Source: Candidatus Doudnabacteria bacterium (lineage in GTDB: Bacteria; Patescibacteriota; Doudnabacteria; UBA920). From it: 64,000 nucleotides of DNA. Numbering within the stretch: position 1 is the stretch's first letter; every line of letters begins with the position of its first letter. Both the position numbers and the translations under genes were made by a program. The notes under the pieces are model-generated. The model worked only from the letters and a program-made list of their open reading frames with translations. It ran no database searches and was not told where the DNA came from. Location: positions 766,305 through 830,304 of the forward strand of contig CAVYGQ010000001.1 of assembly GCA_963768175.1 (NCBI GenBank). The letters run 5' to 3'. Positions 4,354-48,798 of this stretch are shown in pieces.

Positions 4354-7317
4354 TTAATAGCTCCACGCTAAATCGCCTTTATTGGTACTAACCTTTAACA
4401 AATCCAAACCGGTAATTGATTTTAAAATTACGCCGGTTTTGTCTATGCCGACAAGAGAAGTCTTTTTACCGTTATAAACCGCTAAAATGACATAGGTTTT
4501 CTTGGCGGCCACGTTCTGGGAAAGGAAGGTTAAATTATTGTTTTTATCATATGCCCAAACAAAAGCCAAAATGTTTTTGCTGATATCCTGTAATATTCCG
4601 CTATAACTTAAAGACTGGATGGTAGACTGCATGCTGATTTTGCGGTTCTTTTCCTTAAGCTTAATCTCCGTGTTATTCCCGGCTTGGTCGGTAAGCAAAA
4701 TGTCATTTACATTATCCAGCACGGTAACTTTGGATGTGGTGGAAATATTATCACTGCCGGTAAACTGGATGTCTTTAAGCGAAGGGTTAAATTGTATAAC
4801 CGCTTCCGGGGCGGTTTTGTCTATGGTAAAGTTGGTGGTTTGTGGCTGTTCGTTATTCCCGGCTTTGTCGGTGGAAAAGAAGCTGATTGTATGCAGGCCT
4901 TCGGAGGTAACGCTAACTGTTCCCATTCCTCCCCCTTCTAGGGGGAGGCTAGGTGGGGGTGTTAAAGTTTGCCAAACTCCTCCGTCTAAACTGTATTGTG
5001 TTTTTAGTATTCCCGATGTGGTGGAGGCATTATTGTCTACTATTGGATCTTGCGCAGCCAAAGCCACGCTAACATTGCTCCTGTAAAACCCCGGCTGTCC
5101 CATAGTACCAATAATAGTTGAAGTGGAAACGGGAGGGGTGAGATCTTGAGATTGGTCTGCGTTGATGGTACTATCAGGGGTTACCACAACAGGAGTACTG
5201 GTAGGCGTGGCCTGTAAAGTTAAAGTAGTCTGCCCATTATCCCCGCCCAAATTTACTTGGCCGGTTAAAGCGGGAGTTACCGGCAAGTTAGAAAAGACCT
5301 GGGTTTGGGTTGTGACATTCCCACTTATACTTTCGTCATCCAGAGTAAAGGTCCCTGCCGCCGTACCAGCTATATTAATATCATAATTTTGATTATTATC
5401 CGTTGGTAAAAACACATATTTTTCATCTCCCCAGACTTCATAATCCGCTCCGGGAATAGAATTCTCTATTGAACCGTCCGGCAGAAGCCCTGAATGATTG
5501 CCATCTTGGTCAACTACGTCAATTGCCAAAGGGCTATGAATTTTTAAACTTTCCCCTTTAATTTCACAAAGGTCTGGCTTATTGGCCACTTCACCTTGAG
5601 TTAATATTTTCCCGCTAGTATCCAAAGCGCCGCCCGTAAGAATGTTTACAATTTCCTGACGGGAACCGTCTGCGCTAAGCAGGTTTCCGTGGTTTATGCC
5701 CGGCGCGAAAAATGTTCTGGTCTCATCTACCGGCAAACTGTCCGCGCTGGCAAAAGGTACAGTCCCGTCTCCCGAAGTGACTTTTGGAAAATTAAATGTC
5801 GGGGCCGAATTTTCATTAATCCATTCTGTAAACTTACCCAACGTCCCTGATTTACAACCAACTATGTTATATAAATCCACACCAGCGTTTCTTAAATCGT
5901 AGTTATCAAAATCCGCGGTATGCAAATCAGTACTACTAGCCACGCCTTGATTGTTAGCATAACTAGCACCCACCAAGTTCTGCATAGTCTCGGTAAAATT
6001 TAAGTCTTTATCTAAAATAGGATTTGTTAGAGGATTATGAAGGTGAAAAAAACTTCCGGCTTGATTATAGTATTCTTGCGTCGGAGCCAAATCATAAATC
6101 ACCGGCATATTTTGGCCTATCTTTTTCATTTCTAAAGGATTAAGCTCAGGGACGCCAAAATCGTCCCCCACTACTAAAGCTTTTAAAGCCTGTGGCGCGC
6201 CCAAGTTTGGCACGCCCACAAGCACCGCTTTACCAATATGGTGGTCGGTCGGATTTTCCCTTACATATTTTTTTACCAAAAGTCCGCCTGTACTATGGGC
6301 AACAACATTAACCACACTACTCCCCGTAGTGCTAGCAATATATGCAATCTCTCCTTTTAATTGGTTAACCGTGTCTTCACTAACCCCAAACCGCCAATCG
6401 TAAGGAAAAGTAAAAAGATCCTTGCCTTCAGTGTAACCGATGTCGGGAGAAGTAAGTTGATTAATTAAGCCATCTGTATAATGAGAAATAAAACCTATCG
6501 CTCCCTTTTGTCTTATAACTGACCCTAAGGTAAGACTAGCATTAAGCGGCGTCAAATTTTGATTAAAGGCTAACGGATCCATAAAGCCATCTGAAATAAA
6601 ACTCATTTTTGGATTTGCCCATAATAAATTAGTTCCTTGATATATATCTGTTCCTAAAACCCCAGGGACAACTAAAATGGGAACTTTTTGATTGTCTGTA
6701 ACATAGTGCATTCTAAACCACATTGCATAATTGGGATAAATAAAACTCAGGTTAAATTGACCGGCGCCAAGCCATGGGACAGTATTACTGTCTGTTCCGG
6801 CGGCTTCCACATTTTTCATTCCTCCGAGAAAAAACAAGATAAATTTTTTCGTTAAGTCACAAACCGGGCCATTATTTGGATCTATATTAAATTGAAACGA
6901 AAACTCTTGAAAACTATCACTCAATTGATCTTGACTAACAGAATTAAGCGAGGTTAAGTTAGCCAAAAAGAAATCTTCGTCTTCGCCATGCTCGTTGCAT
7001 AAAACTGTCATCTGTACAGGAAAGTCTTGGCCACCAGGGAATTTTCGAAGTCTAACATCTATAGAAGATAGTTTGGCCGGTACTTGGGACAAAAGTTCCG
7101 GAGGATATTTATTATAATCAAAACTTAACATTGTTAGCCCATAACCTGGTTCTTGCACTTGGGCAACATTGCCATTATCATTAACAAACATATCTCCTGC
7201 ATAAAAAGCCGGAACAATGGTACCATCTTGCAGGCCCTGAAAATAAAAAACATCCGATGCCGAAACAAACGCCGGTATAAGTAATAATCCCGAAACAAGC
7301 ACAATGCGCTTGAACAT
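4354..7317 (-). CDS. secreted alpha/beta-hydrolase (lipase/esterase, PGAP1/LCAT-like) with C-terminal Ig-like beta-sandwich domains (987 aa)
   Basis: N-terminal signal peptide MFKRIVLVSGLLLIPAFVSA; GxSxG nucleophile elbow VVAHSTGGLL; Thr/Ser-rich C-terminal repeats; carries an in-frame GC-palindromic element (4928..4961). Confidence 0.6.
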   Translation of the reverse strand: MFKRIVLVSGLLLIPAFVSASDVFYFQGLQDGTIVPAFYAGDMFVNDNGNVAQVQEPGYGLTMLSFDYNKYPPELLSQVPAKLSSIDVRLRKFPGGQDFPVQMTVLCNEHGEDEDFFLANLTSLNSVSQDQLSDSFQEFSFQFNIDPNNGPVCDLTKKFILFFLGGMKNVEAAGTDSNTVPWLGAGQFNLSFIYPNYAMWFRMHYVTDNQKVPILVVPGVLGTDIYQGTNLLWANPKMSFISDGFMDPLAFNQNLTPLNASLTLGSVIRQKGAIGFISHYTDGLINQLTSPDIGYTEGKDLFTFPYDWRFGVSEDTVNQLKGEIAYIASTTGSSVVNVVAHSTGGLLVKKYVRENPTDHHIGKAVLVGVPNLGAPQALKALVVGDDFGVPELNPLEMKKIGQNMPVIYDLAPTQEYYNQAGSFFHLHNPLTNPILDKDLNFTETMQNLVGASYANNQGVASSTDLHTADFDNYDLRNAGVDLYNIVGCKSGTLGKFTEWINENSAPTFNFPKVTSGDGTVPFASADSLPVDETRTFFAPGINHGNLLSADGSRQEIVNILTGGALDTSGKILTQGEVANKPDLCEIKGESLKIHSPLAIDVVDQDGNHSGLLPDGSIENSIPGADYEVWGDEKYVFLPTDNNQNYDINIAGTAAGTFTLDDESISGNVTTQTQVFSNLPVTPALTGQVNLGGDNGQTTLTLQATPTSTPVVVTPDSTINADQSQDLTPPVSTSTIIGTMGQPGFYRSNVSVALAAQDPIVDNNASTTSGILKTQYSLDGGVWQTLTPPPSLPLEGGGMGTVSVTSEGLHTISFFSTDKAGNNEQPQTTNFTIDKTAPEAVIQFNPSLKDIQFTGSDNISTTSKVTVLDNVNDILLTDQAGNNTEIKLKEKNRKISMQSTIQSLSYSGILQDISKNILAFVWAYDKNNNLTFLSQNVAAKKTYVILAVYNGKKTSLVGIDKTGVILKSITGLDLLKVSTNKGDLAWSY
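4928..4961. repeat. C/G-rich palindromic element (half copy) inserted in-frame in the hydrolase gene; encodes ...TPPPSLPLEGGGMG...
   Basis: cctcccccttctagggggaggctaggtgggggtg; the tail ctaggtgggggtg is identical to the end of the 23448..23536 copy. Confidence 0.7.
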
Positions 7318-7982: not shown

Positions 7983-8507
7983 TTATTTCGGAACTGGCAG
8001 GCCGATCTTTTTTAGTGGTAAGAACTGAAAATAATATTCACAACCCATTGAGATAACATAGTCTAAAGAGTCCTTATACCTTGGTTGCCGAAACCAATTG
8101 CTTAAAATATAAATATACTGAACTTTTATATTAAGTGGCTCCATAAGTTTTTTATATATTTTCTTTTTAAAATCGCAGGTTTGTAGCTTTTCATCAACTG
8201 AACCGGGAGTTTTTTGAAACTTTATTTCAATAACAAAAAGAGTGTTGTTTATTATAACAAACACCGCTTCGTCAGGGAGCCATTTTTTTGAAACTATTTT
8301 TTTATAATCAACTCCTTGTGATTCTAAATACTTATAAAGTGCATTTTTTCTATAACTCCTCGCAACCTCCTTGCCATTAAAAAGAATCGTGTGATCGTTA
8401 TATACTGTATAGCCTTTAGTTGTAGACAGCAACGTTAAAATATCTACCCGCTTTTCAAATTTTAGGCCTGTTTTTGTATTGGCTCCACCCTTACCTTTTT
8501 CTATCAT
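7983..8507 (-). CDS. putative PD-(D/E)xK-fold nuclease, candidate Type II restriction endonuclease
   Basis: WLPDEAVFVIINNTLFVIEIKFQK gives PD...(E)IK catalytic-motif spacing; lies in an operon with a DNA methyltransferase. Confidence 0.45.
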   Translation of the reverse strand: MIEKGKGGANTKTGLKFEKRVDILTLLSTTKGYTVYNDHTILFNGKEVARSYRKNALYKYLESQGVDYKKIVSKKWLPDEAVFVIINNTLFVIEIKFQKTPGSVDEKLQTCDFKKKIYKKLMEPLNIKVQYIYILSNWFRQPRYKDSLDYVISMGCEYYFQFLPLKKIGLPVPK

Positions 8508-8526
8508 AAATTTTTGCTGGATGTAA

Positions 8527-8961
8527 TTATAAATTATTTATAAGGTTGAGTTCAATTGAATGAGGCTTCCTATTTCGTTTTAAATACTCTCTTCCATTAT
8601 ATGCCAGCAATACAATAGCATCGTACCCGAGTTTTTTTGCTTTTTTATACATCTTAGAATCTAAACTAATTCTGCGGTTATACCAACCATCACCATCTTT
8701 TAAAGCTCCGGCATATAACTTCTTAAATTCTTTTGGAAACAAATGTTTTAAAATCCTAATTTCGGAAGTGCCACAAATTGGATTCAAAATTTTAACCTTT
8801 TCTGGGATGTCATTCGGCCTGCCGTAAAACTCGGCGTGCTTATATGTGGATGCAAGAAACTTGCCTCTCTTGTTATAAGCATTTGGATCAAGAGGGGTTA
8901 CATGCCACCATTTGGATTTATTAACTTTGTCAATAAGAATTTTTTTTAGAGAAGCTCTCAT
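8527..8961 (-). CDS. hypothetical protein (144 aa) within the R-M operon
   Basis: Start overlaps the MTase stop by 4 nt; no recognisable motif. Confidence 0.4.
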   Translation of the reverse strand: MRASLKKILIDKVNKSKWWHVTPLDPNAYNKRGKFLASTYKHAEFYGRPNDIPEKVKILNPICGTSEIRILKHLFPKEFKKLYAGALKDGDGWYNRRISLDSKMYKKAKKLGYDAIVLLAYNGREYLKRNRKPHSIELNLINNL

Positions 8962-9908
8962 AATAGTTGCCGTTGCGCTATTTTTGTAATAGCTGTAAAT
9001 TGAATTTTGGCTTTATTGTCTTTTGTATTTTGAATTCGTTTTATAGGGAGCATTATTTTATCCATTTCTCGTAGTCTTTTTATTGACAAATCCAAATACT
9101 TCTCTTCCATATCAATACCGATAAACTTTCTTTTAAAAGCGCTGGCCGCAATTCCGGTGGTGGAACTTCCGGTAAAAGGATCCAAGATCACATCTCCTTC
9201 TTTAGTACTTGCCAAAACAATTCGCTTAAGCAAATCTATGGGCTTTTGGGTTGGGTGTTTACCGAACTTTTTTTCTGACTTTCTTGGGGTCAGAATAGAC
9301 CAAACAGAGCGCATCTGCAAGCCTTCTTTCTTTAAAAAATCTTCAGGCCATTGGCCGTTCTTCATTAAATCATAATTAAAGGTGTGCTTGGCCTTTTTAT
9401 CTTTTCGCGCCCAAATAATAGTTTCATGGCTAGCGGTAAAAAAACGGCAACTTAAATTTGGTGAGGCATTTGGCTTAAACCAAGAAATATCGTTTAGAAT
9501 GTGATATCCCAAAGCCTGCAATGCATGGCCGCATTGATAAATGGAGTGGTAAGTACCGCTAACCCAAAGGCTGCCTGCCGGTTTTAAAACTCTTTTACAT
9601 GCTTCTAGCCATTTAAAATGAAATTCGTAATCGTCCTTAAAACCTTTACTTTTGTCCCAGTTCCCTTTGTTTACGCTTACCATTCTTCCTGCGTGTACAG
9701 AAAAACCTCCATTAGATAAGTTGTATGGGGGGTCGGCAAAAATCATATCTACACTATTTTCCGGAAGCTGACTTAAAATATCCAGACAGTTTGCATGATA
9801 CAAAACAAAATTATCCTTAATAAAATAAGGTTTTTGGGCGATATTGGATAATATTTTCGCTCCGTTTTCCATTTTTTTTCTTTTGTTGATTTTTCGTCTT
9901 TTTTTCAT
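8958..9908 (-). CDS. beta-class amino DNA methyltransferase (N4-cytosine or N6-adenine), motif IV DPPY preceding motif I; true start probably the internal ATG (MENGAK, about 9872)
   Basis: MIFADPPYNL (DPPY); C-terminal ILDPFTGSSTTGIAA (FxGxG-like AdoMet-binding loop); the -10 box abuts the first ATG. Confidence 0.8.
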   Translation of the reverse strand: MKKRRKINKRKKMENGAKILSNIAQKPYFIKDNFVLYHANCLDILSQLPENSVDMIFADPPYNLSNGGFSVHAGRMVSVNKGNWDKSKGFKDDYEFHFKWLEACKRVLKPAGSLWVSGTYHSIYQCGHALQALGYHILNDISWFKPNASPNLSCRFFTASHETIIWARKDKKAKHTFNYDLMKNGQWPEDFLKKEGLQMRSVWSILTPRKSEKKFGKHPTQKPIDLLKRIVLASTKEGDVILDPFTGSSTTGIAASAFKRKFIGIDMEEKYLDLSIKRLREMDKIMLPIKRIQNTKDNKAKIQFTAITKIAQRQLL

Positions 9909-13100: not shown

Positions 13101-14071
13101 ACCATGGGGCGCAAATCCGGCGGGATGACCGGCAACATGGAAATAAGCATCCATTCGGGCCGCAGGCCGGAGTTGATTAACGATTTTACCAGCTTCATGC
13201 GTTTTAAAATTTTTCTCTCGGCCTGGCCTTCCAAATTCGGCAAGCTGGTTTGCAAATCCGAAAGCAGCTGCTCCAGGTTGATCTCTTCCAAAAGCCCTTT
13301 TATGCCTTCGGCGCCAATACTGGCCGAAAACACCGGCCCGTATTTTAAAGACAAATCGCGATACTGGAGTTCGCTGATAATTTGCATTTTCTTGATGGAC
13401 TTCAGCTCGGCTCTGGCCTGGTCGCGGATGCTTTCTAGGGCTTGCAGTTCCTTGCTCCAGGCGTCTTTCAGCCGGGTGACTTCCGCGTCAATTTCCGCCT
13501 GAAAGATGTCCGGATCTTTTTGGGAAGATTTTTGCCCGATGCTGGATTTGGATTTGCCGATTAAAGTTTCAAATTTCTCTTCAATGACTTTCTTCTTGGC
13601 TTTAAACTCGTGTTCAATCTGCTCCAAAGTTGACATTCTGGCTTCTTCGTCCACGGAGTTGATAATGTAAGCCGCAAAATAAATAACTTTTTCCAGCTCC
13701 TGTACGCCCAAATCCAAAATCAAACCCAAACGGGAAGGCACGCCGCGCAAAAACCAGATGTGCGCGGTCGGCACGGCCAGTTTAATGTGGCCCATGCGCT
13801 CGCGCCTGACGGAGGATTTGGTGACTTCCACGCCGCACTTGTCGCAGACAATCCCCTTGTAGCGGATTCTTTTGTATTTGCCGCAATAGCACTCCCAGTC
13901 TTTTATGGGGCCGAAAATCTTTTCGTCAAAAAGCCCGTCCTTTTCCGGGCGCTGGGTGCGGTAATTAATGGTTTCCGGCTTGGTAACTTCGCCGTGCGAC
14001 CACTGCATAATGGTCTCCGGGCTGGCGAGCTTCAACCGTACGCCTTTGAAATCTTCTGTCTGTGTGAACAT
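10115..14071 (-). CDS. rpoC: DNA-directed RNA polymerase subunit beta'
   Basis: NADFDGDQMAVHVPL catalytic loop; zinc-binding CYCGKYKRIRYKGIVCDKCGVEV; 1318 aa. Confidence 0.97.
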   Translation of the reverse strand: MFTQTEDFKGVRLKLASPETIMQWSHGEVTKPETINYRTQRPEKDGLFDEKIFGPIKDWECYCGKYKRIRYKGIVCDKCGVEVTKSSVRRERMGHIKLAVPTAHIWFLRGVPSRLGLILDLGVQELEKVIYFAAYIINSVDEEARMSTLEQIEHEFKAKKKVIEEKFETLIGKSKSSIGQKSSQKDPDIFQAEIDAEVTRLKDAWSKELQALESIRDQARAELKSIKKMQIISELQYRDLSLKYGPVFSASIGAEGIKGLLEEINLEQLLSDLQTSLPNLEGQAERKILKRMKLVKSLINSGLRPEWMLISMLPVIPPDLRPMVQLDGGRFAASDLNDLYRRVINRNNRLKKLLEIKAPEVITRNEKRMLQEAVDALIDNSIRHGKEVTASTGQKRKLRSLADMLKGKQGRFRQNLLGKRVDYSGRSVIVVGPNLKLHQCGLPKMMALELFKPFVISKLIGREYAHNVRSANRLIEQGRTEVYDILEEVTKDHYVLLNRAPTLHRLGFQAFQPVLIEGKAIQLHPMVCAAFNADFDGDQMAVHVPLTELAQKEAREIMVSAHNLLKPASGDPVMTPDKDVVVGCYYITRIRLGQKGEGKIFSSPAEAILAYNNGYVHIQAKIKVRLSAEGGSVTGGENGEIVETSVGRLIFNKVVPPELGFRNDNFDKKKLQGLVREAHRLLGNEKTAELIDEIKRTGFYYMKKSGLSWGMDDLLVPAGKYETLKTADGEVEGTYQQYQEGLLTEDERYNRVVEIWADVSEKIAKSVNGTVAEYGSVNYFVSSGARGSFSQITQMSGMKGLVVNPAGDVIELPVKGSFKEGLNVLEYFISTHGSRKGMSDTAMRTADAGYLTRRLVDVAQDIVVNSEDCGTLDCDLITQEESKRMNKPFDRRLFGRVAAEELKDKKGNVIVEKNHGIDDLQAKKIVDAGIEEVKCRSVLKCKLSRGVCRLCYGYDLGFNDMVRLGAAVGIVAAQSIGEPGTQLTMRTFHTGGSASVKDITQGLPRVEELFEAREPKGQAYVSEIDGQVYIAKPNNKEYIIRIQGEDATKDTYDLGRAQSTIKDGSKVESGETLYIDESGKAVKAKTAGMVRLSRRAGSASGGEKNQIIIFHESDQVKEYIIPASLSLLLKDGDLVTKGQQLTEGNLNPGQIMHLRGVEAAQKYIVKEVQDIYVSQGQNIHDKHIEIIVKQMFSKVRVTDSGDSELTVGEVADKAKLGFINAELKAAGKRPVQSEQLLMGITKVSLNTDSFLAAASFQETTRVLIEAAVTGKTDYLRGLKENVIIGKLIPAGTGFTEQIARENLQLEAAASSAMEEGEE

Positions 14072-14078
14072 AGAGGAA

Positions 14079-14116
14079 GTGATTAGTGCTTAGTGGTTAG
14101 TGGTTAGTTTGTAGTG
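14079..14116. repeat. degenerate TAGTG-type tandem repeat immediately upstream of the rpoC start
   Basis: gtgattagtgcttagtggttagtggttagtttgtagtg. Confidence 0.7.
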
Positions 14117-14160
14117 CAGGCCATTGGCCTGCCTTGATGTAAATGAAATATTTTCTCTTC

Positions 14161-14259
14161 GGCGTCATTCTGAGGGAGTGCATCCGACCGAAGAATCTCT
14201 AACCTGCATGAGATCCTTCGCCCGCTTGCTTTTACCGATGACGGGCTCAGGATGACGCC
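14161..14259. mobile_element. MITE-like palindromic element copy 1 (99 bp) with 14-bp terminal inverted repeats GGCGTCATTCTGAG/CTCAGGATGACGCC
   Basis: Terminal inverted repeats plus internal gcatccgaccgaag/atgagatccttcg motifs shared with the copies at 25348, 27879, 29169 and 57073. Confidence 0.75.
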
Positions 14260-14345
14260 ACTAGTAGGTGCCCTTTACAACTCTCTCTCTGTGTGCTATT
14301 TTTAGCTGTCCGATTCTTTTCGGAATGCGAAGGAGGTGAATTACA

Positions 14346-14624
14346 GTGGCTAACGTCCACAGACTGCTTGAAAATGTGGGGAAGGAGCTTCGTGCCTCTC
14401 GGGCAGGAGTAGGCATGTATTACGCTGGAATGGGAGCCAGAGAGCAAGGCCAAGTGGTGGAGAAAAATATGGAAAGGACTGAAATCAGGCTGGCAAGTAT
14501 CGCTCTACGGCTGAAACAAATCCAGTACGCCGCCGACATCGGAGACCTCACCGAAATCAAGCGGCTGCTCGCCGAGGAGATCCCGGTCAATGTTCTGCAA
14601 GCCCCGCAAACCCAGCCTGCCTAA
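14346..14624 (+). CDS. hypothetical 92-aa protein (GTG start, AGGAGG RBS), GC-rich cargo of cassette unit 1
   Basis: aggaggtg RBS 8 nt upstream; higher GC than the flanks; no family match recognised. Confidence 0.35.
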   Translation: MANVHRLLENVGKELRASRAGVGMYYAGMGAREQGQVVEKNMERTEIRLASIALRLKQIQYAADIGDLTEIKRLLAEEIPVNVLQAPQTQPA

Positions 14625-14630
14625 CTCGCG

Positions 14631-14735
14631 CCCGCCGGCGCAGACCTGCTTTGGCATCCGTAGATGCCCAAGTGGCGCCGCGGCAACCCCTTTTTTGACC
14701 GTTCAATCCGGTCAGGAGGGGTAATTTTTTTGCCC
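14631..14735 (+). terminator. conserved structured 3' element (nested hairpins cggcgc...ggcatc-cgta-gatgcc...gcgccg) followed by a CCCC...GGGG hairpin and U-tract
   Basis: The copy at 15128..15232 shows compensatory changes (ggcatc/gatgcc versus gacatc/gatgtc). Confidence 0.45.
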
Positions 14736-14847
14736 ACATTTATTTACATATGTAGAGGGCAGTCCGCCATAGCCTCTTTGTCCGACGAAGCTTTAGCGTA
14801 GTCGGATTTATCGGCTTAATTTTGAAATTTGGTATTGAAAATTGTGT

Positions 14848-14930
14848 AGCCGACCCGAATCTACAAATTGTATCCGAATGTTCCGAATTCGTGTCATTCG
14901 CGTGTAATTCGTATATCCGGATCGGTTATT
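14848..14930 (+). promoter_or_regulatory. CGAAT-rich promoter-associated element containing the core GACCCGAATCTACAAA
   Basis: Core shared with 51953..51968 and 62897..62912 (reverse complement); followed by ccgaat/attcg repeats. Confidence 0.45.
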
Positions 14931-15001
14931 GCTCTTTACAAACCTCTCTCTTATGTGCTATTTTTAGCTGCCCGATTCTTTCGGAAGGTGAAGAGGGTTT
15001 A

Positions 15002-15109
15002 TGAAAAAAAACGATTGGCAAATCTTGATATTGTTGATAGTGGTAGTAATCGCGACAATCGTCACAGTTGGTGGGGTGATCCTGTCAGCCATCGCCGTCC
15101 ATCACTGAT
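15002..15109 (+). CDS. 35-aa hydrophobic (single-TM) peptide MKKNDWQILILLIVVVIATIVTVGGVILSAIAVHH
   Basis: ATG with gaagaggg RBS inside the conserved leader of unit 2; not in the track (under 60 aa). Confidence 0.35.
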
Positions 15110-15127
15110 TCGTCGCCTCCCCGCCAC

Positions 15128-15232
15128 GCCCGCCGGCGCAGACCTGTTTTGACATCCAAAGATGTCAGAGCGGCGCCGCGGCAGCCCCTATCCAGTCGTT
15201 CAAACCGACGGAACCTGGGGCTTTTCTTTTTG
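15128..15232 (+). terminator. second copy of the conserved structured 3' element plus U-tract
   Basis: cgcccgccggcgcagacctgttttgacatccaaagatgtcagagcggcgccgcgg ... ggggcttttcttttt. Confidence 0.45.
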
Positions 15233-15258
15233 TAAATTTTTTAAGGTTCTTTGTCTTA

Positions 15259-15347
15259 TCCCCCTCTTAATATAAGAGGGGGTAGGGGGTGATATTTATC
15301 TTTGCGATAATATCCCCTCCTAGCCTCCCCTTATTCTAAGGGGAGGA
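15259..15347. repeat. C/G-rich palindromic element (two hairpins: ccccctctta-ata-taagaggggg and cctcccc-ttattctaa-ggggagg), intergenic, downstream of rpoB
   Basis: Member of the same poly-C/poly-G palindrome family as 4928, 23448, 35291 and 59194. Confidence 0.65.
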
Positions 15348-15370
15348 ATATTGTACCTATGTCTTCTCCT

Positions 15371-15408
15371 ATTCACTATTCACTATTCACTATTGCCTAT
15401 TCGCTATT
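15371..15408. repeat. heptamer tandem repeat (TATTCAC)n abutting the rpoB stop codon
   Basis: attcactattcactattcactattgcctattcgctatt. Confidence 0.75.
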
Positions 15409-18400
15409 TCTTCTTCTCCTTTTTCGGCTTTTTCTTAACTTCATCATCAAACAAAGAAGTTTCGGCTAAAATCGGCACTACCGGCGGTAAATTAGGCACT
15501 ACGATTTCCGGCTCTTCCGCCGCACTGCTTACCGCACCGTCGCGGCCTAAAAGCTCTACATCCATACACAGCGACTGGAGCTCTTTTACCAATACGCGGA
15601 AAGACTCCGGGATGTTCGGCTTTTTAATAGCTTCCCCTTTTACAATGGCCTCATAAGTTTTTGAACGGCCAACCACATCATCCGATTTTATAGTCAGCAT
15701 TTCCTGCAAAGTGTGCGCCGCGCCATAGCCTTCCAGCGCCCAAACTTCCATTTCCCCAAAACGCTGGCCGCCGAACTGGGCTTTTCCGCCCAAAGGCTGC
15801 TGGGTAATTAGGCTATACGGGCCAGTACTGCGGGCGTGCATCTTGTCGTCAACAAGATGGTGAAGCTTTAAGAAATACATAACTCCCACGGTAACTTTTT
15901 CGTCAAAAGGCTCGCCGGTTTTGCCGTCGTAAAGCGTCACCTTGCCGTCTTGTGGGATGCCGGCCTTTTTAAGCTCTTCTTTAATTTTATGTTCGGGTAC
16001 CCCGTCTAAAACGGGAGTCGCCACTTTATAACCCAGGCGATGGGCGGCCATGCCCATGTGGGTTTCCAAAATTTGACCCAGGTTCATGCGGGACACAACG
16101 CCAAGCGGGTTTAAAATAATATCCACGGGAGTGCCGTCTTCCATAAACGGCAGGTCTTCCACCGGAATAATTTTGGAAATGACGCCTTTGTTGCCGTGGC
16201 GGCCAGCCATTTTGTCGCCGACCTGGACTTTGCGCAAAACCGCGACCGAGACCTGGATGCTGCGAATAACGCCGCTTTGCAGCTTGTCCCCGGCTTCGCG
16301 CGTAAACTGGCGGATGTTAACGACTTTTCCGTATTCGCCGTGCGGCAAGGTAAGGGAAGTATCTTTCACGTCCCGGGACTTTTCGCCGAAAATAACTCTC
16401 AGGAGTTTTTCTTCCGCGGTTAAATCGGTCTCACCTTTGGGCGTGATTTTGCCGACTAAAATATCGCCAGCTTTTATCTGGGCACCAATGCGGATAATGC
16501 CGTTCTCGTCCAAATCCTTTAATTTTTCCTCGCCGACATTGGGAATATCCCGCGTTACCTGCTCCGGCCCGAGTTTGGTATCGCGCACGTCTATTTTAAA
16601 ATCATCAATGTGAATGCTGCTATAACGATCCTGCTGCACCAAGCGTTCGGAAATTAAAACCGCATCTTCGTAGTTGCCTCCCTCCCAAGACATAAAGGCC
16701 ACCAGCACATTTTGGCCCAAAGCCAGCTCGCCGCGATCCGTGGAGGCGCCGTCGGCTAAAATTTCGCCTTTCTTAATAGTCTGTCCCTTATTTACGCGGG
16801 CAATTTGGTTAATAGAGGTAGCGGAATTGGTACGCAAAAATTTCAGCAAAGGGTATTCTTTCTTTTTGCCTTTTTCGCCGACCACAATAATTTTTTCTCC
16901 GGTCACGGAAGTTACGATGCCGTCTTCATCGGCCAAAACCACGGTGCCACTGTCGCGCGCGGCCTTGCCTTCCATGCCCGTGCCGACTATGGGCGCTTCG
17001 GGCTTAATGCAGGACACGGCCTGGCGCTGCATGTTACTGCCCATAAGCGCGCGGTTGGCATCGTCGTGTTCCAAAAACGGAATCAACGAAGTGGTAACGG
17101 AAATAATTTGTTTTGGGGAAACATCCAAATAGTCTATGTCGTCGGTAGAAGCCATGGTCGGCACGGCGCGCACCCGGACGCTGGCTCTTAAATCCGCAAA
17201 GTGCCCGCGGTCATCAAGGTTAATATTGCTTTGGGCGATAATCAGCCGCTCTTCTTCATAAGCGTCCAAATATCTAATTTTATCCGTAACGCGGGGCTTA
17301 ATGCGGATTTCCAAAAGCTGGTGGTTTTTTGCCACTTCTTTGGCTTTGCCTGCGGTAATGGTTTCTCCGGCGGTAACTATTACGTCGCCTTTTTCGTCTT
17401 TAATATCATAAAGGGAAATTTCGTCTGCCAGATCCTTGCCGTCGTTTTTGGCGGATTTTTTTACCACCCGGTAGGGCGTTTCAATAAATCCAAAATTATT
17501 TACCCGCGCGTAAGTGGCCAAGTGGGCTACCAGCCCGATGTTCGGTCCTTCCGGCGTGGTAATCGGGCAAAGCCGCCCGTAGTGGCTGTGGTGCACGTCG
17601 CGGACTTCAAATCCGGCGCGCTCACGGGAAAGCCCTCCCGGCCCCATGGCAGACAGCCTTCTTTTGTGCTCCAGCTCGGCCAAAGGATTAGTCTGATCCA
17701 TAAATTGCGACAGCTGCGAAGAGGAAAAAAATTCCTGCATGGTCGCCACAATCGGCCGGACATGAATAAGCTGGGCCGGAGTCACGGTATCTAAATCCGC
17801 CAAGGACATGCGGTCTTTGGCAATTCTGGCCATGCGGGCAAGGCCTACGCGGAAACGGGCCTGGATAAGTTCGCCTACGGCCCTGACGCGGCGGTTAGCC
17901 AGGTGGTCAATATCATCCGGTGTGCCTTGGGAGTTGTTTAATTTAATTATTTCGCGAACGGCTATGACCAAATCTTCTTTGGTCAAAATCTGCCTATCTC
18001 GCTCTCTTAAAGCCGAGGCGGGGCTTTCGTTACCATCAACGTGCAAACGCTGATTAAACTTATAGCGGCCGACCGCGGAAAGATCATAACGTTCGGTGTT
18101 AAAAAACATTCCGGAAATTAAAGACTTGGCATTGTCTACCGTGGCTAAATCACCGGGTCTGATTCTTTTATAAACTTCCTTATAGCCTTCGTCCGGGTTG
18201 GTAGAGGCGTCCTTTTCCAAAGTGTTTTGGATATATTTGGTGTCCGGGTCGGTATCGACATCGGCAAAAGCGGCTAATATTTCTTCATTGCTGCCTAAGC
18301 CAAAAACTCGCAGTAGCGCGGTTATGGGGATTCTTCTTTTGCGGTCGATTTTAACGCCAATCACGCCGGTGGCGTCGGTATCCAGTTCCAGCCAGGCGCC

Positions 18401-19321: not shown

Positions 19322-19669
19322 CTATGCCGTACCGCTTTGCTTAATATAATCGCTAATCCGCTGCTGGTCTTCCCTCGCTTGCTCACCTTTAAAATACAGT
19401 TCAATAAAGACTATTTCTTTCTTGTTGGGGTGATAGGCATAAATTATCCTTAGTGTATTTTTCTTCAAAAATCGGCAAAAAAATCGCGCTTTGGCAATTT
19501 TTAACTCGCTGTTTTGGAATAAAACAGCAAAATGCTTGTCAGTTCCAAGCGGCACTTCTTCCAAAACTTTCTTGAACACTTCCAAATCTTCGGGCAGGGA
19601 AAGGTATTTTTTGCCCAGCCGTTTGCAATTTTTGGTAAATTCAGGTAATTCATTAAAGTTCATCGTCAT
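19322..19669 (-). CDS. RelE/ParE-superfamily (HigB-like) toxin; start assumed at the internal ATG (MTMNFNEL), overlapping the upstream antitoxin stop
   Basis: C-terminal RIIYAYHPNKKEIVFIELYFKGE pattern typical of RelE/ParE; 17-nt overlap with the HTH gene. Confidence 0.5.
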   Translation of the reverse strand: MTMNFNELPEFTKNCKRLGKKYLSLPEDLEVFKKVLEEVPLGTDKHFAVLFQNSELKIAKARFFCRFLKKNTLRIIYAYHPNKKEIVFIELYFKGEQAREDQQRISDYIKQSGTA

Positions 19670-20429
19670 AATTGCGGACCGAATGTTCCTGATCACGGTA
19701 AAAAACACTTTCGTAATCTATTGCTTCTCCGGGTTTATGAACCATCCAAGGTATATCTGAATGGGAATATTTGCTTAATTCCGAAGCGGATTTATCGGAA
19801 AGCCGGTTTAACACCTCGTCAATATGTGCCAATTCCCGCGCGGACAATACTGTTAAATCCGCCTCTTCTCTCGGTAAGTATTTTTTTTGCTCATACTGAA
19901 AATAGCTGCTTTTAACTTTTTCCAGTTCATTTTGCGCTTCCATTTCTTTAACCAAACTCGAAAATTCCCTGGGAGTGGGTCCAAAATGATTGCGGATATA
20001 AGTCGCGCCGGTTAATTGTTCCTCAAACTTTTCATAAAAATCAAAATCAACAAAATATAACAACTTATAAAGTGCAGTTTCACCTATGTTGGGTTTGGCG
20101 CCGACTTTCCCCAAAATATATAACAAAACACTTTTAAATTTGTCAACGTTCAACTTGGGGACATTAATTCTAACTTCATTTTCAATTTCCGATTTTTTTG
20201 CCCTATTATCTAATTTTACCTTATGCTCGATAGGCGAAATTTGCGCCAAAAAATCGTCTAAAGGCAAACCAAAAAGCTCCGCGAGTTTTTGAGCTTCAGA
20301 TACTGTTAGCTCCCTTTCCCCTTTTTCTATTTGCATATAAGTGGGGCGAGAGACATTAATTTTTTGGGACACAAAATTCTGGGAAAATTTCGCATTTTCC
20401 CTCAATTTTTTGAGATATAGTCCAGTCAT
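19653..20429 (-). CDS. XRE-family HTH antitoxin-like protein with a C-terminal roughly 170-aa domain (possibly DUF4065/Panacea-type)
   Basis: N-terminal LYLKKLRENAKFSQNFVSQKINVSRPTYMQIEKGERELTVSEAQKLAELFGL HTH_XRE; first gene of a two-gene operon behind a consensus promoter. Confidence 0.6.
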   Translation of the reverse strand: MTGLYLKKLRENAKFSQNFVSQKINVSRPTYMQIEKGERELTVSEAQKLAELFGLPLDDFLAQISPIEHKVKLDNRAKKSEIENEVRINVPKLNVDKFKSVLLYILGKVGAKPNIGETALYKLLYFVDFDFYEKFEEQLTGATYIRNHFGPTPREFSSLVKEMEAQNELEKVKSSYFQYEQKKYLPREEADLTVLSARELAHIDEVLNRLSDKSASELSKYSHSDIPWMVHKPGEAIDYESVFYRDQEHSVRNYDDEL

Positions 20430-20460
20430 AGGGCTTAATCCTTTATTATTACTTTTCTTA

Positions 20461-20488
20461 ATTATATCAAAGTTAAACTATTTGTCAA
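20461..20488 (-). promoter_or_regulatory. consensus sigma70 promoter TTGACA-16-TATAAT for the toxin-antitoxin operon
   Basis: Reverse complement reads ttgacaaatagtttaactttgatataat; about 25 nt upstream of the HTH gene start. Confidence 0.55.
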
Positions 20489-20603
20489 TAGCTATAGTAA
20501 ATAACCTTTACAAATCATCAATTCCCTGCTAAACTATAAGGTAAGGTGGAGGCCAATAACCGAAACCAAAACTAATAATTAACTTGCTATGAAAGGAGCA
20601 AAT

Positions 20604-20765
20604 ATGCCAAAGCAACATCGTCACGTTGTCGATTTTGTGGCCCACAAGAAAGTTAAGGAGCCTGTAGAAGTCACTTTTGTGACCAATAAGGGTAAAGTAG
20701 TGGATTTTCCGGCCCACAAAAAAGTCAAAGAACCTGTGGAAGTCAGGTTCAAGGCCAAAGATTAA
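20604..20765 (+). CDS. 53-aa protein with two tandem 17-aa repeats (VDFVAHKKVKEPVEVTF / VDFPAHKKVKEPVEVRF)
   Basis: aaaggagc RBS 4 nt upstream of the ATG; strong terminator immediately downstream; not in the track (under 60 aa). Confidence 0.4.
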   Translation: MPKQHRHVVDFVAHKKVKEPVEVTFVTNKGKVVDFPAHKKVKEPVEVRFKAKD

Positions 20766-20796
20766 ATTAACTTCAAAAAAATGAAATCAAAATTTT

Positions 20797-20836
20797 AAAA
20801 GGCCGCGGCCAAAATAGTCGCGGCCTTTTATTTTGT
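20797..20836. terminator. intrinsic terminator (11-bp perfect stem aaaaggccgcg/cgcggcctttt); also serves the convergent DUF262-HNH gene
   Basis: Perfect GC-rich stem with a U-tract. Confidence 0.7.
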
Positions 20837-20843
20837 ATATTTT

Positions 20844-21935
20844 TTATTTTCCGGATTTAGTTCTATTATCATCTACGCACAGCATCTGGCAATTTTCCGC
20901 CGTAGTCGCCCCTCCCTTGCTCCACGGTTTGATATGGTCGGCTTCCATTTCGGAAATATCATATTCTTTTTTACAAAACGGGCAAATGCCGTTTTGCCGC
21001 TCATACGCCTCACGCTTCATTTTGTCGGTAAAAGCACGGATTGAAAGGTATTTTTCTTGTCTCGTTAAAATATATGGGTAAATACCGGATTTTTTAGTTA
21101 CATCTTCGTCCTGCATTAACTCTTTAATTTCGGCTTCCAGTTTGCCGACATTCTGTTTCTTGTCTTTAAATTCGTTATACAGTTCGCCCCACTCTACACT
21201 ATTCATTTCCCGGCGATAATTCGTAAAAGTTTTTCGCACCCAATCAATTACTTCTTGAAAATACTCCCATAACTCATCGGCATTTTTATTATGCTGATGC
21301 TTAGCCATGTAATCTTCTATTTTGCCGTTGTTAATCCATGAAAGCGCGGTTTCCAAATATTCCTGCCGAATTGGCGAACCGCTTACCAACTGCCCGCCGT
21401 CGTTGGCCAGCAGATACGCCGCGCAATGCGTTTTGCTGAACTTTAGTTTTGCGTCACTAAGCCACGGCCCTGTGTAAACCGCGTTACGGATTTCCTGGTC
21501 GGTAAGTTTTTCGCCGGCGATGTTAATAATCCTGAACCAATCCAGCCGCTCTTTATCCGTGCCCTCGCAAAAATAAATCATCAGCTCGTAATCCAAAATC
21601 CGGTTTTGTTCTTCGTCGGTTAGATTATGAAAATACATCTCGTTAAGTGAAAAATCACCGGCAACATATTGCCCGATGCTAATGGTGCGCTGTTGGCCGT
21701 CCAAAACTTCAAAATTGCCGGAATCATTTTTCATCCAGTACATTACATTAAGCGGGAAGCCATTTTTGATGGTTTTAATAACGGCATTGCGCTGCTGCTC
21801 CTTATAAACAAACTCCCGCTGATATTTTGGCCGGATATCCAGCTTGCCGCTAAAAGCTACTACGCCCTCCTCGGCGCTGTCTTTATAACCAGCAATTACT
21901 TTTCGTATAGTGATGCGATGTAAATCTATTTTCAT
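20844..21935 (-). CDS. DUF262 (ParB/Srx-like, DGQQR motif) plus C-terminal HNH nuclease; GmrSD-like candidate restriction component
   Basis: LDGQQRTISI motif; HNH signature CPFCKKEY...ADHIKPWSKGG...NCQMLCVDDNRTK. Confidence 0.7.
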   Translation of the reverse strand: MKIDLHRITIRKVIAGYKDSAEEGVVAFSGKLDIRPKYQREFVYKEQQRNAVIKTIKNGFPLNVMYWMKNDSGNFEVLDGQQRTISIGQYVAGDFSLNEMYFHNLTDEEQNRILDYELMIYFCEGTDKERLDWFRIINIAGEKLTDQEIRNAVYTGPWLSDAKLKFSKTHCAAYLLANDGGQLVSGSPIRQEYLETALSWINNGKIEDYMAKHQHNKNADELWEYFQEVIDWVRKTFTNYRREMNSVEWGELYNEFKDKKQNVGKLEAEIKELMQDEDVTKKSGIYPYILTRQEKYLSIRAFTDKMKREAYERQNGICPFCKKEYDISEMEADHIKPWSKGGATTAENCQMLCVDDNRTKSGK

Positions 21936-21936
21936 A

Positions 21937-23004
21937 CTAATTGATTACTTTCTTATTTTTTATGATAACTCGCGCGTAAGGAACGTCAACGGCTCCATTT
22001 GTAATCATGTACAAATCACCATCAACAGCTCCTCTTTTTTGAATTTCTTTCCTGTATTTTTTGTGGTTTTCTTTATAGGGCTTAACCCCAATTTCTATTC
22101 CCGAATTGGATATTCCCAAACCGATAATCTCAAATTGCTCCGGATTATATTTATCAAGAAAGGTAATAGGCACCCCTATAGCACCATTGTAGTCTGCCGG
22201 GATTTCAGAAGTTTTATTAACGTTAATAGCATCAAAATTTTCATACTTGGGATATTCTGTGGGAGTATATTTTTTATAAAGTAAAAAATTTTCATGACGC
22301 TCTTCGTAATCAAGGTTTGTAAACCAACGCACGCCTTTAACGCGAATATACTTGTGCCCATCCGCATCAACACGATAACTTGCCGCGTTCAGAGGATAAT
22401 CATCTGGTACCTGAAATTCACGATCGCCGCTATGGATACTCGCTCCAAGCCACATATTATTTTCTTTTATTAACTTAAAACACTCTTTATAAGTAATTGC
22501 ATTTACATTTCCAATTATCAAAAATTTCTTATTGTACTCCACCAACTGCGCAATATATTCTCTTAACAAAGAAAACGGCGGGTTGGTTACCACGATGTCG
22601 GCTTCTTTCAGCAGTTCAATACACTCCTGGCTTCGGAAGTCACCGGTGCCTATCATTTTGGTCATAAAATCATGCGGGTCGGGAACACGGCTGCCCTTTT
22701 TGCCGCCGGTGTATTCCAGTTTATATGGCGGTTCGTGGGTAAAAAGGTTGGCTTCTTTGTAATGAGTGGCAATGAGTTTCTTAAGTCCCAGTTCCGCAAA
22801 ATTTATGCTAAAATATTTCACAAAATTGCTTTCTTTCGGGTCGTCGCAATTACAAAACACCACTTTACCGCGAAACTGGTCTTTGTAGTGCTTAAGCTCG
22901 TTTTCAATATCGGCAAGCTGGGTATAAAATTCGTCTTTTTTTGCCCTGCTAGCCGTATGTAGATTTTTGTTTAAAAATTTCTTTTCCATGATTATTTTTA
23001 CCAA
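21937..23004 (-). CDS. putative N6-adenine DNA methyltransferase (gamma-like motif order: DEFYTQ motif X, then NPPF motif IV)
   Basis: DIVVTNPPFSLL (NPPF); N-terminal DEFYTQL resembling the (G/D)xFYTP AdoMet-region motif; lies upstream of the DUF262-HNH gene. Confidence 0.6.
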   Translation of the reverse strand: MVKIIMEKKFLNKNLHTASRAKKDEFYTQLADIENELKHYKDQFRGKVVFCNCDDPKESNFVKYFSINFAELGLKKLIATHYKEANLFTHEPPYKLEYTGGKKGSRVPDPHDFMTKMIGTGDFRSQECIELLKEADIVVTNPPFSLLREYIAQLVEYNKKFLIIGNVNAITYKECFKLIKENNMWLGASIHSGDREFQVPDDYPLNAASYRVDADGHKYIRVKGVRWFTNLDYEERHENFLLYKKYTPTEYPKYENFDAINVNKTSEIPADYNGAIGVPITFLDKYNPEQFEIIGLGISNSGIEIGVKPYKENHKKYRKEIQKRGAVDGDLYMITNGAVDVPYARVIIKNKKVIN

Positions 23005-23104: not shown

Positions 23105-24136
23105 ATGGACAATGTTATTGAAGTGCAAAACCTAAAAAAAGTCTACCCCTCGCCCAAAGGCAAACAGCCACTGGAAGCTTTAAAGGGTGTGTCTTTTTTT
23201 GTGGAAAAAGGCGAGGTCTTCGGCATTTTGGGACCCAACGGCGCGGGGAAGACCACGACTCTGGAAATTATAGAATGTTTAAAACCGCAGACTTCCGGGG
23301 AAGTTGCGGTTTTGGGGTTTGATAATGTTAAATCTCCCGATGATATAAAAAAACGCATCGGCGTGCAGCTGCAGTCCAGCCAATATTTGCATCATTTATC
23401 TTTAGGGGAACTGCTGGATTTGTTTGCCTCATTTTATGGAAATAAATCACCCCTCCCTAACCCTCCCCCTCCAGGGGAGGGAATAAACACCGCAATAAGT
23501 TCCTCCCCCTTGAGGGGGGAGGCTAGGTGGGGGTGGACAAAGGATGATAAAAAAAACCTATTACAGCTAGTGAGCTTAGAAGACAAAGAACATGCCGAAT
23601 TTGCCAACCTTTCCGGCGGGCAAAAGCAGCGCTTCACCATTGCCACCTCCTTGGTGCATGAGCCACAAATTTTGTTTTTGGACGAACCCACCACCGGGCT
23701 TGACCCGAAAGCGCGGCGCGACATGTGGCAACTGGTTAAGACCATTAATGCCCGCTCAATCACTATTGTCTTAACCACGCACTACATGGAAGAGGCGGAA
23801 TTTTTATGCCACCGCGTGGCCATTATGGACCAGGGGAAAATTTTGGAAATTGACGAGCCAAAAAAATTAATAGACCGCCTGTCGGAAACCACGCAGATTT
23901 CCTTTTTTACGGACAGCCGCCTTGACCAAAACTTTTTCCGCACATTGCCGGAAATAAAAAAAATCCACGCCAGCTATCCCAAAGTCATTTTGGAAATCAC
24001 TTCTTTGGATAAAATTTCCGCGGTGGTAAATTTATTAAAACAGCACAGCATAGTTTTTTATGGATTTACCGTCAAAACCGCCACTTTGGAAGACGTCTAT
24101 TTGAAACTTACGGGAAAGGAGTATGAAGAAGAATAA
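23105..24136 (+). CDS. ABC transporter ATP-binding protein with an in-frame 30-aa insertion encoded by a palindromic element
   Basis: Walker A GPNGAGKTTT; signature LSGGQKQR; Walker B ILFLDEPTTGLD; the insertion NKSPLPNPPPPGEGINTAISSSPLRGEARWGW sits between the Q-loop region and the signature. Confidence 0.9.
   Translation: MDNVIEVQNLKKVYPSPKGKQPLEALKGVSFFVEKGEVFGILGPNGAGKTTTLEIIECLKPQTSGEVAVLGFDNVKSPDDIKKRIGVQLQSSQYLHHLSLGELLDLFASFYGNKSPLPNPPPPGEGINTAISSSPLRGEARWGWTKDDKKNLLQLVSLEDKEHAEFANLSGGQKQRFTIATSLVHEPQILFLDEPTTGLDPKARRDMWQLVKTINARSITIVLTTHYMEEAEFLCHRVAIMDQGKILEIDEPKKLIDRLSETTQISFFTDSRLDQNFFRTLPEIKKIHASYPKVILEITSLDKISAVVNLLKQHSIVFYGFTVKTATLEDVYLKLTGKEYEEE
23448..23536. repeat. full-length C/G-rich palindromic element (89 bp; terminal inverted repeats cacccctccctaa / ctaggtgggggtg; two internal hairpins) inserted in-frame in the ABC ATPase gene
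   Basis: ccctcccc-ctcca-ggggaggg and cctccccc-ttga-gggggagg hairpins; GC composition far above the host gene. Confidence 0.75.
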
Positions 24137-25347: not shown

Positions 25348-25433
25348 GGCGTCATTCTGAGCCCGAATGCATCTGAAGGCGAAGAATCTTTTATGAGATC
25401 CTTCGGTCGGATGCACTCCCTCAGGATGACACC
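25348..25433. mobile_element. MITE-like element copy 2 (86 bp)
   Basis: ggcgtcattctgag ... ctcaggatgacacc terminal inverted repeats; internal atgagatccttcggtcggatgcac. Confidence 0.75.
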
Positions 25434-29168: not shown

Positions 29169-29254
29169 GGCGTCATCCTGAACGCAGTGAAGGATCTCAA
29201 TCTTATCTTAGATGAGATTCTTCGCCTCGGATGCACTCGGCTCAGAATGACGCC
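29169..29254. mobile_element. MITE-like element copy 4 (86 bp)
   Basis: ggcgtcatcctgaa ... ctcagaatgacgcc. Confidence 0.75.
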
Positions 29255-42879: not shown

Positions 42880-42949
42880 ATATGTTAGTTCTTGCCCCCA
42901 CACCAAAACGCATTATTAAGCGTTCTAATTTAAAGGCAGTTATTTAATT
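42316..42949. repeat. 634-bp segment (5' leader plus signal peptide plus N-module of paralog A) nearly identical to 44343..44976 of paralog B
   Basis: Direct comparison finds only a few SNPs clustered in the signal-peptide codons plus one 1-nt indel. Confidence 0.85.
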
Positions 42950-43005
42950 GTTTTTACTTAATGCTAATTTTTTGCTTTTGTGGTTGCCCACTAAGAATTT
43001 AAAGG

Positions 43006-48795: not shown

Positions 48796-48798
48796 GGA

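Follow-up and report, generated by a model that had tools for sequence, protein, structure and literature searches.

A candidate slot for small antisense gene units between rpoB and rpoC in Candidatus Doudnabacteria

The genes rpoB and rpoC, which encode the β and β′ subunits of RNA polymerase, are among the most conserved adjacent gene pairs in bacteria. In the 64,000-nt stretch of Candidatus Doudnabacteria DNA analysed here (contig CAVYGQ010000001.1; hereafter the window), the two genes lie on the same strand and are separated by 1332 bp (14072–15403). This gap holds two small cassettes, each a complete transcription unit that runs against rpoBC on the + strand, and six related lineages carry one such antisense unit between rpoB and rpoC. 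The unit is a patchy feature of the lineage, and the gap is neither universal in it nor private to the window genome. We propose that the rpoB–rpoC spacer in a subgroup of Candidatus Doudnabacteria is a locus-specific slot for exchangeable small accessory genes, a reading to which we give about an even chance. What appears new is that an autonomous module, carrying an ORFan (an open reading frame (ORF) of no recognised family) between conserved regulatory flanks, has a fixed place within the RNA polymerase operon in a candidate phyla radiation (CPR) bacterium; no description of an rpoB–rpoC slot was found in the searchable literature. A CPR lineage with a reduced genome thus tolerates, and apparently maintains, a predicted independently expressed antisense unit within rpoBC.

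The gap is an insertion relative to a short ancestral spacer. Canonical rpoBC genes share a strand and have a spacer of no more than ∼200 bp; the window keeps the shared strand and departs from the spacing. As an outgroup baseline we used other Patescibacteria, Chloroflexi and Actinobacteria from an RpoC contig scan (≤62% identity among the matches listed). Among these matches, 76 of the 77 distant relatives in which both genes were found have a spacer of −17 to 210 bp; the remaining one, L017, returned a spurious value from a cross-hit. Within the window, the rpoC start is the ATG at 14071, and its MFTQ N-terminus is kept in relatives. Repeat-rich regions often misassemble and this genome is metagenome-derived, which could point to an assembly or binning chimera in which rpoB and rpoC are truly adjacent. 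However, the Logan contig L081 (run ERR10755942) matches window positions 13968–15725 at 100%, spanning rpoC, the gap and rpoB. Because this independent contig crosses the gap, the junction is not a chimera; the same architecture also recurs in five to six further lineages whose data stem from different samples and assemblers. We regard a chimera as hardly credible. The preliminary description of this DNA, which had reported rpoB and rpoC as split by 1332 bp of repeats and two cassette-like small ORFs, is therefore upheld on both the split (by the NCBIfam matches in Table 1 and the Logan contig) and the composition of the insert.

Each cassette runs from a predicted sigma-70-type promoter through a leader with a Shine-Dalgarno site and a small ORF to an intrinsic terminator (Table 1). 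The two share a 5′ region (86% identity over 90 columns) and a 63-nt 3′ element (86% identity), and within the window both motifs are confined to the gap, in two copies each. The inner stem of the 63-nt hairpin stays paired despite sequence changes between the copies (GGCAUC/GAUGCC versus GACAUC/GAUGUC). The only promoter-like sites in the gap are the two + strand cassette promoters, and a scan for hairpins followed by a U-run found strong + strand terminators at 14725 and 15222. The leader of the units reads TATTTTTAGCTGYCCGATTC, and the position of the Shine-Dalgarno site and start codon does not vary among the seven units compared. The cassette 1 promoter is kept in relatives; the −35/−10 spacing is 17–19 nt across lineages, and most cassette promoters carry a (CT)4–7 tract within this spacer (14280–14296 and 14941–14958 in the window; also L087, L092 and L098). 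Slippage at the (CT)n tract could make cassette expression phase-variable. These shared blocks substantiate the two cassettes of the preliminary description, which had missed their independent promoters and terminators and their + strand orientation. Rfam models at the gathering threshold gave nothing over the whole window, and no tRNA or tmRNA was found. The sole Rfam match over the gap at E≤1, a miRNA hairpin at the gap palindrome, was judged spurious.

Close relatives, nearer than the outgroup set, were obtained by protein search plus contig look-ups, giving a sample of 13 lineages: 12 relatives and the window's own. Where measurable, the spacers of the six relatives with a unit are 690–929 bp long. 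L083 (RpoC 94% identical) has a 929-bp spacer with an antisense ORF of 82 amino acids (aa); L084, L085 and L086 (93%) have a 724-bp spacer with an antisense 56-aa ORF containing a CxxC motif; and L087 (87%) has a 690-bp spacer with an antisense 69-aa ORF. An antisense 90-aa ORF is found on L092, a 1.26-kb contig from the Joint Genome Institute (JGI), and an antisense 87-aa ORF in L098/L099 (82% over the RpoC N-terminus). On the P0007 contig (88%), an antisense ORF lies 132 bp upstream of rpoC, a case known from the ORF only. Other relatives have no unit: L094 (RpoC 87%, 134-bp spacer), L088 (86%, 215 bp), L096 (86%, 84 bp), L089 (84%, 52 bp) and L090 (80%, 88 bp). In L091 (77%), the spacer contains a sense-strand gene of 190 aa (5419–5991) with no Pfam match, so that the rpoB–rpoC spacer seems to be a recurrent insertion site. 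The carriers are not monophyletic in an RpoC neighbour-joining tree, which is poorly resolved. Comparison of the rpoBC junctions thus goes part of the way toward a spacer universal in the lineage, the finding named in advance as contrary to the preliminary description: the unit is common to several lineages, but it is absent elsewhere at similar distance and its content differs.

Two further observations concern individual relatives. In L083, the closest relative, a 45-nt inverted repeat (98% complementary; 2422–2466 and 3210–3254) brackets a 743-nt insert that contains a miniature inverted-repeat transposable element (MITE), the cassette and a palindrome. The bracketed segment could be invertible or a foldback element, or a palindromic repeat could simply be present twice; no comparable arrangement exists in the window. 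The sequences of L084, L085 and L086 are mutually identical and hence offer no polymorphism for a ratio of nonsynonymous to synonymous substitution (dN/dS).

Comparison across lineages separates the ends of the unit from its coding insert. The promoter and leader are 88–91% identical between the window and L084 or L092, where rpoB/rpoC coding DNA is 84–86% identical, and the ORFs do not align at the DNA or protein level. A profile of the family of ORF92, the 92-aa ORF of cassette 1, matched none of the other slot ORFs, revealing no hidden homology. The coding insert would thus be either fast-evolving or replaced outright, with the regulatory ends kept. The unit is also tied to its locus as far as the data reach, rather than being a dispersed mobile element, because matches to the leader are restricted to rpoBC spacers: a leader 20-mer occurs in only two contigs of the JGI metagenomes, both rpoBC spacers, has no match in IMG/VR, and does not occur beyond rpoBC spacers in 1.16 Mb of fetched loci. 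A single IMG/VR match to a 3′ 20-mer, considered as a sign of phage origin, was judged a chance match inside a coding region.

The flanks of the window cassettes resemble those of different relatives. Upstream of cassette 1 lies a MITE, as in L083, and the sequence past its terminator (TTTTTTTGCCCACA...) resembles L087. The flanks of cassette 2 are, upstream, a CGAAT element shared with L084 and, downstream, AAGGTTC (TTTTAAGGTTC) with the CCCCCTCTTAATATAAGAGGGGG palindrome, shared with L083. A slot unit is self-contained and faces against rpoBC: a strong sigma-70-type promoter (extended −10) and a short hairpin leader are followed by a Shine-Dalgarno site, an ORF of 35–92 codons and a strong intrinsic terminator. 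We conjecture that its conserved ends serve as homology arms, through which recombination could replace the gene or lead to unequal exchange. Unequal exchange would then have produced the tandem units of the window with their unrelated ORFs, one with an upstream side like the L083 type and the other like the L084 type. Small palindromic and MITE-like repeats common in the genome pad the rest of the gap, and heptamer blocks at its borders are the split remains of an ancestral spacer of ∼50–130 bp.

Several points weigh against this proposal. The 63-nt 3′ hairpin is common to both window units and absent from all relatives, a pattern that fits duplication or gene conversion within the lineage better than two foreign alleles simply being joined. 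The case for recombination between the conserved ends is built on mosaic similarity, and extreme divergence of orthologous ORFs is conceivable for some pairs. Thirteen lineages and a poorly resolved tree cannot separate ancestral presence with losses from repeated gains. Promoter activity, termination and read-through are all predictions. No function could be assigned to the small proteins from their sequences or models: the six slot ORFs gave nothing significant against Pfam, PHROGs or PADLOC, and an AlphaFold2 (AF2) model of ORF92 matched nothing in the PDB below E=3. The 35-aa peptide of cassette 2 (ORF35) has no homologue, and its putative coding status is argued from its Shine-Dalgarno site and position.

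Evidence that the slot carries real genes comes chiefly from ORF92. An exhaustive HMMER search recovered five homologues (83–121 aa), 38–43% identical over the full length; this depth was needed, as a word-indexed search returned ORF92 alone. The homologues share a MAN... N-terminus, which confirms the GTG start. The family keeps its full length and hydrophobic pattern at ∼40% identity, and by this conservation ORF92 is a genuine, fast-evolving gene. One homologue, P0125, is itself encoded antisense between rpoC and rpoB, in a lineage whose RpoC N-terminus is 82% identical. The unit of P0125 shares the promoter, (CT)n spacer included, and also has the hairpin leader, the Shine-Dalgarno site and a terminator. 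The AF2 model of ORF92 is a helical hairpin plus a short helix (predicted local distance difference test, pLDDT, 84) with an ankyrin-like AAxxGDLxxxxxLL motif. HMMER matches to a 3386-aa immunoglobulin (Ig)-repeat protein and to an ankyrin-repeat protein were set aside as reflecting at most this C-terminal ankyrin-like motif, and are functionally uninformative. For the other slot ORFs, a coding role is suggested by the conserved Shine-Dalgarno site, start codon and terminator frame. No homologue or family match was detected for five of the six distinct slot ORFs, and a tblastn search with three slot ORFs found no match in GenBank phages.

An alternative is that the gap is a tolerant site filled with decaying mobile-element remnants, in which most of the ORFs would be spurious and shared sequence would stem from recent common descent only. 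Its richness in MITE-like and palindromic repeats would fit this, as would the five ORFs without relatives and the often short contigs that bear the spacer, as expected of repeat-rich DNA. Nonetheless, promoter, leader, Shine-Dalgarno site, ORF and terminator are intact in all seven units (7/7) although rpoB/rpoC DNA is only 79–89% identical, and decay accords poorly with the conservation of the ORF92 family as a full-length protein. We therefore judge the remnant explanation improbable. The ORF92-family members P0122, P0124, P0125, P0126 and P0128 are all on short contigs (412–2465 bp), which suggests that assemblies routinely break in the repeat-rich spacer; the slot is probably under-represented in assembled genomes. 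In practical terms, the repeat-rich spacer probably breaks assemblies, and most contigs with the spacer are 0.4–2.5 kb long.

A second alternative places selection on regulation: the convergent promoter would lower or tune rpoC relative to rpoB by head-on interference or antisense RNA, and the ORFs would be incidental cargo. The promoter and leader are indeed the best conserved parts of the unit, all eight units seen are antisense, the site is always the rpoB–rpoC spacer, and the (CT)n tract, with its 17–19 nt spacing among lineages, could modulate promoter strength. However, every unit retains an open frame with its start codon and a strong Shine-Dalgarno site, as well as a terminator to end the transcript before rpoB, and ORF92 is maintained at the protein level between lineages. 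Relatives at similar RpoC distance do without the unit, so it is dispensable for rpoBC expression. On balance we think a purely regulatory role unlikely.

What the insert does to rpoBC transcription can be approached from the opposite strand. Prediction found neither an intrinsic terminator nor a sigma-70-like promoter on the rpoBC-sense strand of the window gap, and relatives have only weak, non-conserved terminator or promoter candidates on this strand. A conserved new rpoC promoter is argued against because the sequences upstream of rpoC differ between carriers, and read-through from rpoB is likely because the terminators work on the cassette strand only. We infer that rpoC is probably still co-transcribed with rpoB by read-through across the insert. 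The interrupted co-transcription put forward in the preliminary description finds no sequence support.

Read-through would also matter to a third alternative, in which the units are addiction modules resembling type I toxin-antitoxin systems and the mRNA of a small toxic peptide is countered by antisense RNA from rpoBC read-through. ORF35 resembles many type I toxins in being short and in having one predicted membrane helix; the 3′ regions of the cassette mRNAs are structured; rpoBC read-through, if it occurs, would cover the whole unit antisense; and toxin-antitoxin modules flank rpoBC. Yet the remaining slot ORFs considered (92, 82, 56, 69 and 90 aa) look soluble and are not hydrophobic peptides, none matches a known toxin family, the minus strand of the gap has no promoter-like site that could drive a dedicated antisense RNA, and the Shine-Dalgarno site of the cassette 1 leader is not predicted to be sequestered. 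We consider this explanation very unlikely. Compared with described type I systems (hok/sok, tisB/istR, fst/RNAII), ORF35 offers by its composition a candidate short hydrophobic peptide, with a structured mRNA, an intergenic position and a possible antisense overlap; the slot differs in having no promoter for a dedicated antisense small RNA, no toxin homology and mostly non-hydrophobic ORFs.

The closest described analogue of the proposed slot is the promoter-early stem-loop (PeSL) cassettes in hyperplastic regions of T4-type phages, in which ORFans sit between strong early promoters and stem-loop terminators (Arbiol et al. 2010, PMC2839356; Comeau et al. 2014, PMC4122927). Even among close relatives, the ORF between the conserved motifs of these regions may be inserted, deleted or replaced, and recombination between the motifs is the proposed shuffling mechanism (PMC2839356, PMC4122927). 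The slot likewise has a sigma-70-like promoter and a stem-loop terminator bordering small ORFans, and its relatives differ by the ORF between conserved motifs, with one unit where the window has two. In contrast to the many, dispersed PeSL copies, the slot is at a single fixed rpoBC locus with two copies in 64 kb; its host is a cellular CPR bacterium and not a phage, and its leader is absent from IMG/VR. Moreover, it is built as promoter-leader...terminator around an ORF, whereas the PeSL motif is a composite of terminator and promoter; neither mini-circles nor any other direct sign of exchange turned up for the slot, and there is no sequence similarity.

Two other systems bear comparison. Like integron cassettes, the slot has variable small ORFs that are mostly ORFans, a fixed platform, a structured 3′ element in the form of an imperfect palindrome, and possible tandem arrangement. 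Integron cassettes were excluded, as the units lack attC core sites and are individually promoted: a pattern search for attC cores over 14072–15403 found no GTTRRRY and one RYYYAAC, against 2.6 expected by shuffling, and a Pfam scan of ten neighbouring ORFs found no integrase. Morons and variable islands resemble the slot in being autonomous promoter-gene-terminator modules between conserved adjacent genes with a patchy distribution among relatives. The slot modules differ in sharing homologous regulatory ends around unrelated ORFs, and in lying within the bacterial RNA polymerase core operon.

If the conserved ends do mediate exchange, the slot would offer tiny genomes a simple, integrase-free route to sample ORFans at a fixed, highly transcribed site, and would be a natural test case for head-on transcription within an essential operon. 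It is tempting to speculate further that the slot is a working gene-exchange platform, a bacterial counterpart of PeSL that swaps, duplicates and possibly excises ORFans, while its (CT)n-slippable convergent promoter tunes the β′:β ratio by head-on interference and so couples accessory expression to RNA polymerase synthesis. This fuller scenario strikes us as quite doubtful, and a little less probable than either the remnant or the purely regulatory explanation.

The borders of the gap preserve the ancestral spacer. The heptamer array in the rpoC leader is followed by CACTTCCTCT-ATG, a C/U-rich sequence without a Shine-Dalgarno site, and an ACTAAYC...CACTTCC rpoC leader is found in relatives both with and without an insert. 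L094, with its cassette-free 134-bp spacer, has an ACTAA-rich rpoC leader that also lacks a Shine-Dalgarno site (CACTTCCTC-ATG), and its spacer carries CAGGCCACTGGCCTG (CAGGCC...GGCCTG), a counterpart of the perfect hairpin at 14116–14132. At the other border, the second array begins at the rpoB stop codon and has stops in all three frames. The 52-bp spacer of L089 has CGATAAG-GCAATAG-type heptamers after the rpoB stop and CACTAAT heptamers before rpoC. Because cassette-free L089 and L094 have these counterparts, the heptamer arrays and the 14116–14132 hairpin are the two halves of the ancestral spacer, and the insert proper spans roughly 14135–15368. The deposited RpoC (P0002; 1297 aa) is 21 residues short of the ORF from the MFTQ start, a difference that corresponds to window positions 14009–14071; the missing Shine-Dalgarno site probably misled the gene caller at the rpoC 5′ end.

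Repeats make up the rest of the gap (Table 1). The element at 14161–14259 has the properties of a MITE, being short, non-coding, bounded by terminal inverted repeats and multicopy: the window carries 10 matches to its terminus motif where 1.45 would be expected, with paired copies at 25348–25433 and 29169–29254. A CGAAT element similar to that at 14847–14928 precedes the L084 cassette. Next to rpoB, the 15236–15349 segment has C/G palindromes at 15260–15282 and 15324–15346 and is syntenic with the rpoB-proximal L083 spacer (70% over 145 aligned columns); one half of its palindrome belongs to the window repeat family D9. Copies of D9, a C/G-rich hairpin repeat (TTCCTCCCCC...GGGGGAGGCTAGG...), are at 4926–4961, 15309–15346, 23500–23535 and 35290–35325, some of them inside the long ORFs 4354–7317 and 23105–24136. 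Most of the preliminary account of these repeats stands. The MITE copy is borne out by its 14-nt termini and their excess in the window, and the C/G palindromic element and the heptamer repeat abutting the rpoB stop are present as described (15260–15346 and 15369–15408). The tandem array read as TAGTG exists but has a 7-nt unit, AGTGGTT, by Tandem Repeats Finder (TRF). The CGAAT-rich element called promoter-like is a repeat, and the promoters sit instead at the cassette 5′ ends. The repeats credited to rpoC as a leader of its own are real but belong to the ancestral spacer, as they also occur in relatives with 52–134 bp spacers.

Table 1. Features of the rpoB–rpoC gap and its surroundings in the window
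Feature	Position	Strand	Evidence or remark
rpoC, β′ subunit, 1318 aa	10115–14071	−	NCBIfam TIGR02386, 1622 bits
rpoC leader heptamer array, AGTGGTT ×4.4, (AACCACT)n in rpoC sense	14078–14108	−	TRF, period 7
Perfect hairpin GCAGGCC-ATT-GGCCTGC, just upstream of rpoC leader	14116–14132		sequence
MITE-like element, 99 bp, 14-nt terminal inverted repeats GGCGTCATYCTGAG, 93% complementary	14161–14259		inverted-repeat search
Cassette 1 promoter, TTTACA, 17 nt, TG-n-TATTTT (extended −10), (CT)n tract in spacer	14274–14302	+	sigma-70-type prediction
Cassette 1 leader, 5′ hairpin UCCGA/UCGGA (14309–14324), Shine-Dalgarno GAAGGAGG	14303–14345	+	alignment, folding
Cassette 1 ORF (ORF92), 92 aa, GTG start, MANV...	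14346–14624	+	homologue family
Cassette 1 63-nt GC-rich 3′ hairpin	14629–14691	+	repeat match, folding z = −3.7 versus shuffles
Cassette 1 intrinsic terminator, 13-bp stem then T7	14686–14731	+	predicted ΔG −20 kcal/mol
Short hairpin-forming filler between cassettes, TCCGAC...GTCGGA	14762–14806		sequence
CGAAT-rich palindromic repeat	14847–14928		related copies at 24140, 51952, 54447
Cassette 2 promoter, TTTACA, 18 nt, TG-n-TATTTT	14935–14964	+	sigma-70-type prediction
Cassette 2 leader, same family as cassette 1, Shine-Dalgarno GAAGAGGG	14965–15000	+	alignment
Cassette 2 ORF (ORF35), 35-aa peptide MKKNDWQILILLIVVVIATIVTVGGVILSAIAVHH, predicted single membrane helix	15001–15108	+	composition
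Cassette 2 copy of 63-nt 3′ hairpin	15127–15189	+	repeat match, folding z = −3.9 versus shuffles
Cassette 2 intrinsic terminator, interrupted stem then TTTTCTTTTT	15183–15232	+	predicted ΔG −16.5 kcal/mol
Junction TTTTAAGGTTC and double C/G-rich palindromic element	15236–15349		L083 similarity, inverted repeats
Heptamer array CTATTCA ×5.7, (TGAATAG)n in rpoB sense	15369–15408	−	TRF
rpoB, β subunit, 1173 aa	15404–18925	−	NCBIfam TIGR02013, 1582 bits
N6/N4 methylase, downstream of rpoBC	8958–9908		Pfam; with two ORFs of no assigned family, region 7983–9908
HTH-Panacea (SocA-like) antitoxin with 128-aa partner	19653–20429		Pfam; upstream region 19322–23004
GmrSD/HNH nuclease, upstream of rpoBC	20844–21935		Pfam
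EcoRI-type methylase, upstream of rpoBC	21937–23004		Pfam

The surroundings of rpoBC are variable as well. In the window, rpoBC is not adjacent to rplJL, and the ten neighbouring ORFs scanned with Pfam include accessory genes on either side (Table 1). In relatives, other defence or toxin-antitoxin genes take these positions, among them DpnI and DndB, a methylase with Vsr, and BrnT/CopG. These changing defence and toxin-antitoxin surroundings fit the accessory-slot reading, under which the small slot proteins would have an accessory role, probably related to conflict. Further along the window, the long minus-strand ORFs 39757–42906, 43006–44889 and 45216–48527 share repeats of 300 nt and of 83–242 nt at 76–99% identity (42311–48805), and appear to be tandemly arranged paralogues encoding large proteins.

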